This document shows, in pieces, positions 4,432-5,933 of a stretch of 26,568 nt of DNA (positions are counted from its first letter, which is position 1; each line of letters opens with the position of its first letter). The DNA lies in the IMG/VR virus record IMGVR_UViG_2724679237_000010, positions 1 through 26,568 of that record; one strand, 5' to 3'. The notes below the pieces were generated by a model that worked only from the letters and a program-made list of their open reading frames with translations, did not search any database and was not told the origin of the DNA. A program made the translations under genes and the position numbers. Source of the DNA: a virus (Duplodnaviria; Heunggongvirae; Uroviricota; Caudoviricetes).

Positions 4432-5933
4432 TTAGACTGTTTCTTTAAAAAGAGGGGCCAGAGCTTCAACTGTGTAATCATTATTAATGCGGTACATTAA
4501 CGTAATTGTTTGTGCCGGGGATTTCGGTCCAAAGTCAACATTAATATAAAGATTACCAGCGGCCAGACTTTCTTTTGTATTTAACTCTTCATCTAACCAC
4601 GCCCGTCCTCCGTTAATCGCGCCCTGCTCCTCTAATTTATGCAGATACGCGTTTATCGACTCTACAACGTCTGTTCCGAGGTGCAGGTCTATCGGGCGAT
4701 CAATAAAATCGGTCATCATTGCCCGGGCTATTGAATCCTCAATTACGTCAGCTGTCCGACGAACGCATTCAAAGGACCATTGGGGACTGAGGCTACACAG
4801 ATAGTTCCCCCAGTGCCGGAACCCGTCATAGCGAATAATTGTGCTGACCTGACTGGCGTTCAACAGGTTCGCTGTGCAGTTTGTCTCACCAATAATAAAA
4901 TCGTCGACTTGTTCAAGCCCTGTAACTCCGTAGATATTCTGGTTCGATTTACTCCACCAGAATCCTTTTTCATTATCAATTCTGGCTCGTAAACCAGCAG
5001 CGATAGCTGAATACGGACGAGATAAACCACTAACATCACTCGTAGAATAAACGCGAGGACGTAAAATTTCCATCCTGCCGCCATATCTTTGACGACGATT
5101 AACAACGTCTGTGGGTGTAGCGCCTCGCGGTGAATCTATATACCCAACACCGCGTAATTTATTTGTCACGACCTCAAGTTGTTCGGCAATATAATCGTTG
5201 GCGCTATAATCAGGAGCGATTAAAATTCTCGGCATTACTTGATTTATTTGCGCAGACGTCAATAATGCGTTAATTCCGGTAACGACATTTTTCCTCATTT
5301 TTGTTTCGTCGCTGTCTTCTTCAACGCGAACCACAACAATAATGGCGTCTTCCTGATTTAGTATTTCAGATACAGCAGGCGGGAGGGTACCGTACCACCC
5401 GAGCAACTCAGATTTTTTTTGCTTCCTGCGATTACCGTCGGAATATTGCATGGGAAAGACTCATCTTTACCACCTGATAAATTTGTTGGAGGAAGAGCGA
5501 ATACAGTACCCGTTCCTGCGTGATCACCACCGAAAGTGACATTAATAGATTCTCCCAGTGGAAGACCTTCTTTATATTGCTGATTTTGATCAGCCAGTTT
5601 TGACGGTGTAGTCGCGCCGTCTGTTGTCAATGTTAATTTTCTCGAACCATCGGGTAGCGTGCTATATCCTGGAGTGGCTACACTCCCGTTAATGCCGACA
5701 TTGACGATTTCGACAATCCAGTTGTTTCCGTCGGCCCCTGGCATCACTGTTGAAAACTCAACGAGATTATCTGCGAGTTCTGAACCCCATAATAGAAACG
5801 ATCTGGCGGCGATGCTGGCGTCGGGCGCTGTGCCAACAACACCGATTACTGACACGTCGACGGTGGAAATTTCTTTTGTGCCGTCGTCGTATTCAAGCGT
5901 GCGCGGACCGTGCAAAAAATTAGTTGCGCTCAT
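4432..5933 (-). pseudogene. Tail sheath protein (P2 FI-like), interrupted by a frameshift in an A8 tract (T8 on plus strand at 5413-5420)
   Basis: The 191-aa ORF (5358..5933) begins MSATNFLHG...ISTVDVSVIGVVGTAPDA, resembling the P2 FI N-terminus. The 339-aa ORF (4432..5451) carries the sheath C-terminal core (VVVRVEED..., RYDGFRHWGN..., GNLYINVDFGPKSP...). The two are in different frames and overlap at 5358-5451; one extra A in the A8 run would fuse them into one ~500-aa reading frame. Confidence 0.7.

Follow-up and report, generated by a model that had tools for sequence, protein, structure and literature searches.

The split sheath gene

The window, the whole 26,568-nucleotide stretch of viral DNA analysed here, is a prophage that joins a lambda-like head module to a P2-like contractile tail module. 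Its tail sheath gene is divided between two minus-strand ORFs of 191 and 339 aa that overlap at 5358-5451 (Table 1). Beyond the tail tube and tail assembly chaperone genes, the neighbours of the sheath include a tail fibre gene and genes for the P2-type baseplate proteins I, J, W, and V. The initial annotation had placed both ORFs, their overlap, and the T8 run of the plus strand correctly.

Table 1. Features of the tail sheath locus, in window positions.
Feature	Position	Strand	Remarks
Tail sheath gene, whole	4432..5933	-	1502 nt; intact homologues 1500-1503 nt; now a frameshifted pseudogene or OFF allele
N-terminal ORF, 191 aa	5358..5933	-	Native residues 1-173 (arm and outer domain), then out-of-frame tail
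C-terminal ORF, 339 aa	4432..5451	-	Conserved sheath core (PF04984 and PF17482) from ~5412 downstream
A8 tract on the coding strand (T8 on plus)	5413..5420	-	Site of the 1-nt loss; closest intact alleles A9
Inserted outer domain, codons 40-157	5463..5816	-	No counterpart in the P2 FI or pyocin R2 sheath
Tail tube gene	3902..4414	-	PF04985; directly downstream of sheath, marks the sheath-tube pair
Tail assembly chaperone gene	3608-3889	-	PF10109

The two ORFs are halves of one gene. At 1502 nt (2 mod 3), the gene falls one base below the intact length of 1503 nt. The split is not a chance pattern of ORFs, as an intact E. coli sheath protein spans both frames of the window, its residues 1-181 aligning to one (frame -2) and its residues 171-500 to the other (frame -1). 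The change of frame is confined to an interval of ~100 nt within 5358-5465, a region in which T8 is the sole homopolymer of at least four bases. The 191-aa ORF ends in an out-of-frame tail of 18 aa (NLSCSGGTVPSRLLYLKY).

Domain matches to the protein repaired by one added A identify the product. PF04984 (sheath subtilisin-like) matches residues 217-377 with 40.9 bits (cut-off 31.4), PF17482 (sheath C-terminal) matches residues 383-480 with 55.3 bits (cut-off 26.9), and phrog_23 ('tail sheath') matches residues 2-50. The N-terminal arm of the sheath is kept, with residues 4-39 being 47% identical to residues 2-37 of P2 FI. Arm, core, and C-terminal domain do not share a single uninterrupted frame in the window; they are split between frames -2 and -1 at the A8 tract. 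The window gene is by descent a contractile sheath gene of the P2 gpFI and pyocin R2 type, and it is not intact.

Both ORFs are already present in protein databases, residue for residue, under separate names. The 339-aa ORF is WP_237765989.1, a 'phage tail sheath C-terminal domain-containing protein' of Escherichia albertii, and the 191-aa ORF is WP_237765990.1, a 'hypothetical protein' of the same species. These identities make the window an E. albertii prophage. The two records are halves of one sheath gene and are to be read as a frameshifted pseudogene, and predictions of prophage intactness for this E. albertii lineage should allow for the split.

The outer domain of the sheath

The repaired sheath is larger than its best-known relatives. 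P2 and pyocin R2 share with the window the gene order of sheath, tube, and tail assembly chaperone, yet the repaired window sheath has 500 aa, compared with 396 for P2 FI and 386 for the pyocin R2 sheath, and carries an extra domain between arm and core. Two stretches align with P2 FI: residues 4-39 pair with FI 2-37, and residues 158-487 pair with FI 40-385 at 36% identity. In the pyocin R2 sheath, residues 36-383 align with window residues 155-492. This protein (PA0622, PDB 3j9q) is the best solved match both by sequence (E = 5.8e-47) and by fold. An insertion of about 110 aa relative to P2 FI, proposed in the initial annotation, is real and measures 118 aa (residues 40-157).

The full-length structure model is that of P0001, a protein 92% identical to the window sheath. 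It is poor at residues 292-394, so the fold comparison uses a model of the N-terminal fragment only. The insertion is modelled as a compact domain at a pLDDT of ~95, consistent with the earlier suggestion that it might form a separate domain. Its nearest folds are the outer parts of other phage sheath proteins, and the modelled domain resembles those of Desulfitobacterium DSY3957 (3hxl), phiCD508 gp55, phiKZ gp29, and T4 gp18. As modelled, the 118-aa segment is the familiar variable outer domain of many larger sheaths and nothing new.

The outer domain is also the variable part of the sheath within its own family. In an alignment of 43 family members, the segment is hypervariable and lies between the conserved arm and an LSGG-DEPFP-IAGS motif that is also conserved. 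The N-terminal sheath segment is 81% identical to that of the E. coli SK1144 prophage, against 94-100% for most of the prophage proteins. Similarly, identity between the window and one of the closest intact relatives (L009, below) falls to 80-85% within gene nt 151-450, against 93-100% elsewhere in the sheath gene. These differences suggest a mosaic outer domain that may have arisen by recombinational exchange or by diversifying selection on a surface domain. The tail fibre also ranks among the most divergent matches to SK1144, as do packaging protein FI (81%) and the decoration protein (84%). The frameshift lies ~15 codons past the outer domain, at the start of the conserved core.

Intact relatives and the missing base

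The closest intact sheath alleles carry nine A residues where the window has eight. Two IMG/VR contigs that share the window's allele, L008 and L009 (L016 is a wider view of the L009 contig), emerged from a pattern scan that used flanking sequence of the window as its anchors. The same flank-anchored scan returned no match in genome and metagenome contig collections, and its matches are confined to IMG/VR. Both contigs read GGA AGC AAA AAA AAA TCT GAG, in which the codons AGC AAA AAA AAA TCT encode S K K K S.

Between L008 and the window, identity is 93.6% over 12 kb and reaches 98.7% in the sheath gene. The 499-aa sheath ORF of L008 is uninterrupted, agrees with the A9-repaired window protein in 495 of 498 residues, and contains the junction IPTVIAGSKKKSELLGWYGTLPPAVSEIL. 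The repair junction predicted in the initial annotation, IAGSKKKSELLGWYG, is thus present in an intact natural relative. L009 is 97.3% identical to the window over 5675 nt, with the tract base as the sole gap, and its wider view has an open sheath frame of 500 aa.

Since the closest intact alleles carry A9, the window is an A9-to-A8 contraction. The initial annotation had located the lesion in the homopolymer, argued that one added A would repair the frame, and recommended comparison with closely related prophages. That comparison agrees with it on both counts, as the two closest intact alleles have an intact frame and carry the ninth A exactly there. An alignment to the E. coli A8 allele alone had placed the lost base just 5' of the run (AGT to AG), a position overturned by the closer A9 alleles.

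History of the tract

Among annotated sequences, the window is closest to a prophage that 417-453 complete E. coli genomes carry, with ST131 frequent among these genomes, and to four GenBank 'phage' entries of the vB_EcoM-569R10 type, all at ~88-90% nucleotide identity. In these records the sheath is one ORF of 1500-1503 nt. The E. coli ST131-type sheath (WP_000117510.1; vB_EcoM-569R10, SK1144) shares with the window the 500-aa architecture with an outer domain and a syntenic prophage, and it is 92% identical in amino acids and ~89% in nucleotides over the gene. A study of phages detected in genomes of clinical E. coli names the records of the vB_EcoM-569R10 type, and its available part offers no evidence of working particles for this intact relative.

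The E. coli allele differs from the window at the tract itself. E. coli relatives read GCA GGC AGT CAA AAA AAA GCT, and this allele is intact in nearly all of the 417 complete genomes, whereas the window has AGC AAA AAA AAA minus one A. In E. coli, A8 is in frame because an extra C precedes the run (AGT CAA AAA AAA). The initial annotation had reasoned that an eight-base tract conserved across related functional phages would argue for another expression mechanism. With the E. coli tract in frame, its conservation gives no such pointer.

Length variants of the E. coli allele are rare. Exact queries with A7 match two of the 417 complete genomes, strains A1.S1.18 and A1.S1.126 (NZ_CP146595.1, NZ_CP146588.1), and queries with A9 match none of the 417. 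Elsewhere, A9 occurs in one draft genome and six Logan contigs; E. coli relatives with A9 include GCA_024546825.1 (L014) and L013. Either A7 or A9 splits the sheath gene of the ST131-type prophage at the same place. A 324-aa C-terminal sheath fragment of the E. coli type (P0137) is recorded on 265 contigs. This count suggested a common truncation, but in the complete E. coli genomes the A8 tract is nearly invariant.

Across intact relatives, the homologous codons are CAG AAG AAA (A3), CAG AAA AAA (A6), CAA AAA AAA (A8), and AGC AAA AAA AAA (A9). In all 17 close IMG/VR relatives whose sequence is long enough for a verdict, the sheath frame is open for ~500 codons. Judging from these codons, point substitutions lengthened a Gln/Lys-Lys-Lys codon run, and a slippery length arose only in the window's branch. 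Broken copies of the window's own allele are confined to the A9 branch. On a small scale, the tract neatly illustrates the origin of a mutational hotspot, with a run lengthened through A3, A6, A8, and A9, and then broken copies.

Condition of the remaining prophage

The rest of the prophage is in good order. When the 36 proteins that the E. coli SK1144 prophage has besides the sheath are mapped on the window, 34 align over their full length in one frame at 80-100% identity. The mapped set spans gpD, the tape-measure-like protein, the tube, the baseplate, the capsid, the portal, and the terminase, and continues through the lysis genes and antiterminator Q to ImmA/IrrE. The two exceptions are the tail fibre, which matches in its N-terminal half only, and a 129-aa ORF, whose match is weak and partial; the reading frame is broken in neither. 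The sheath is the only split gene in this comparison. With the remaining genes intact, the sheath lesion appears recent and the prophage is no decayed remnant.

Both exceptions lie next to the sheath. The window's tail fibre gene (5945-7114, 389 aa), set against L010 21632-23205, departs from the SK1144 fibre after the N-terminal half. In SK1144, the 129-aa ORF sits between fibre and sheath. The window instead carries an ETEC1738-type arrangement at the fibre, a host-range cassette swap.

A further point of difference lies between tail protein X and gpU, where window positions 1261-1436 hold 175 nt of AT-rich sequence with two 8-base runs (A8 at 1339-1346 and T8 at 1380-1387). At the same spot, the related prophage L012 (positions 10477-10719) has an opposite-strand ORF of 80 aa with a match to the superinfection-immunity Pfam family PF14373. 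The segment at 1261-1436 may be a moron insertion site.

Long homopolymers are common in the window as a whole. Runs of at least 7 bases number 24 against 8.9 expected from first-order Markov simulations (~2.7x), almost all of them A/T, and runs of at least 8 bases number 4 against 2.6 expected.

Authenticity of the shortened tract

A single missing base in a homopolymer invites the suspicion of an undercalled run. If the genome truly carried A9, the sheath would be intact and the split an artefact of one base. The lesion sits in the only homopolymer of the region, and the split is the only defect of a 26.5-kb prophage, which is also how an artefact would look. Homopolymer indels are found in noisy assemblies of E. 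coli relatives (a C run in L006 and L007, and A7 in L007), and some E. albertii genomes were first sequenced by 454, which is prone to homopolymer errors, and then corrected with MiSeq (PMC4700944).

The A8 tract is nonetheless reproduced in separate data. Logan assemblies of DRR017174 and DRR017175 and three more contigs are 100% identical to the window, A8 included. These contigs are 14-22 kb long, with identity measured over 3.9-6.6 kb, and they may derive from one clone, so they demonstrate reproducibility and not independent events. Even so, the identical A8 was rebuilt from at least two separate runs, and A8 stands on a different allele in SRR30213228, a run unrelated to these. The contig from that run, L012, is 95% identical to the window over 10.5 kb and has the same split. 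The assemblies of the A9 relatives show that nine residues are callable at this tract. An undercalled base is unlikely on this evidence.

L012 also bears on how often the tract has changed. Its sheath gene (A8) is 100.0% identical to that of L008 (A9) over the remaining 1499 aligned positions, and the two prophages differ by 46 SNPs over 8.4 kb. The window's sheath allele differs from both by 1.3%. The near-twins, together with the distinct allele of the window, imply that tract length has changed at least twice among four distinct alleles. The changes would be either two losses or one loss and one reversion.

The split is best explained as a real, recent A9-to-A8 knockout of the sheath gene in an otherwise intact E. 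albertii prophage, with a probability of roughly 0.78. Among the three alternatives put forward in the initial annotation (a homopolymer sequencing error, a real inactivating mutation, and a slippage-prone tract), the evidence best supports a real mutation that inactivates the gene and lies in a slippage-prone tract, and sequencing error holds only the minor place given to it above. The sheath split is an ordinary homopolymer frameshift and involves no new expression mechanism.

Expected consequences of the frameshift

The knockout would have begun with the loss of one A from a coding run of nine (Ser-Lys-Lys-Lys), most likely by strand slippage during DNA replication. In many bacteria, selection against slippage becomes evident once A/T runs reach nine, and runs of this length are expected to be hypermutable in replication (PMC1088944). 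Translation from the sheath start would leave the frame after Lys173 and meet a stop 18 codons on. The sheath core would be stranded in frame -1 without a strong start of its own; by eye, possible starts of the core ORF have only a weak Shine-Dalgarno-like sequence upstream.

Little or no full-length sheath would be made from such a gene, and contractile tails would probably not be built at normal levels. Without full-length subunits, no contractile sheath should polymerise, to judge from the sequence. A lesion in a homopolymer is reversible in principle. A small full-length fraction could also arise if RNA polymerase added an A on the A8 run, and a small leak of this kind is plausible. In endosymbionts, poly(A) frameshift pseudogenes are partly rescued by transcriptional slippage.

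Such a leak would have parallels in other bacteria. Disrupted ORFs that slippage might restore have been catalogued, including cases with 9A or 9T (Baranov et al., 2005; PMC1088944). In E. coli, transcriptional +1 insertions become exponentially more frequent as A/T runs lengthen, up to 9 nt (PMC5574713). The window resembles the slippage-rescued pseudogenes in having a 1-nt indel in a coding A run and a frame that one added A can restore (PMC1088944). Its A8, however, is among the shortest of the lengths prone to slippage in E. coli-like bacteria, and rescue here is no more than a possibility.

Phase variation and recoding

The same tract could also be read as a selected, reversible ON/OFF switch between A9 and A8, in which a mix of tail-competent and tail-less lysogens would be advantageous. 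Length change does toggle the frame, with A9 in frame and A8 out. Very close strains are polymorphic, as L012 and L008 have otherwise identical alleles that differ in tract length only, and two of the four distinct A9-type alleles are OFF, although four alleles are a small sample for such a comparison. An intact remaining prophage fits transient OFF states. The repeat, however, is not kept by selection across the lineage: A long tract is not conserved, and relatives have A3, A6, or A8 at the position of the A9 run. The in-frame A8 allele is nearly invariant across the 417 E. coli genomes, and the presence of A8 in every window-identical contig suggests stable inheritance. Classical contingency tracts, moreover, are far more mutable than poly-A runs of 8-9 in enterobacteria proficient in mismatch repair. 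Selected phase variation is a very unlikely explanation.

In a related reading, the A9/A8 run might be a working reversible switch whose OFF state is leaky through polymerase-added A. Populations of lysogens would contain the otherwise intact prophage in tail-competent (A9) and tail-less (A8) form, and tail or particle production would be phase-variable instead of simply lost; this is quite unlikely. If the tract did switch at measurable rates, it would be an easy means of switching tail production, though none of the findings calls for this.

Under programmed recoding, the gene would be meant for reading across the change of frame. Both a short N-terminal product and full-length sheath would be made, through slippage of RNA polymerase on A8 or through a ribosomal shift to -1 on A_AAA_AAT. 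The junction does hold a slippage-prone motif, since A8 is read in the zero frame as AAA AAA AAT and contains A_AAA_AAT, and a 500-aa product would result if the mRNA gained one A or the ribosome shifted by -1 on AAA AAT. A/T runs of 8-9 are known slippage sites (PMC1088944).

The rest of the evidence argues against recoding. The two-frame arrangement is not conserved, as single ORFs are found in all 17 close IMG/VR relatives of sufficient sequence length and in nearly all of the 417 E. coli genomes. No stimulatory RNA structure is predicted in the 83 nt downstream, whose predicted fold is no more stable than those of shuffled sequences (MFE -17.9 kcal/mol; mean of the shuffles -19.9; z = +0.60). 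Stimulators of the dnaX type work at roughly 10-14 nt, but the upstream AGGA is only ~5 nt from the heptamer. Each tail needs hundreds of sheath copies, and low-efficiency recoding would fall short of that demand. Recoding is an exceedingly improbable account of the split, and a knockout by loss of one A remains the preferred reading.

A different site in the window does resemble programmed recoding. At the end of the chaperone ORF, the -1 frame is open for ~55 codons, to just past the start of the tape-measure-like gene (3499). An A_AAG motif (GTA AAG) lies at ~3635-3638 on the minus strand, within the region 3500-3640. By its sequence, this region probably corresponds to the canonical gpE/gpE+E' programmed frameshift of P2-type tails. 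The probable gpE-type recoding site lies 1.7 kb from the accidental frameshift in the sheath gene.
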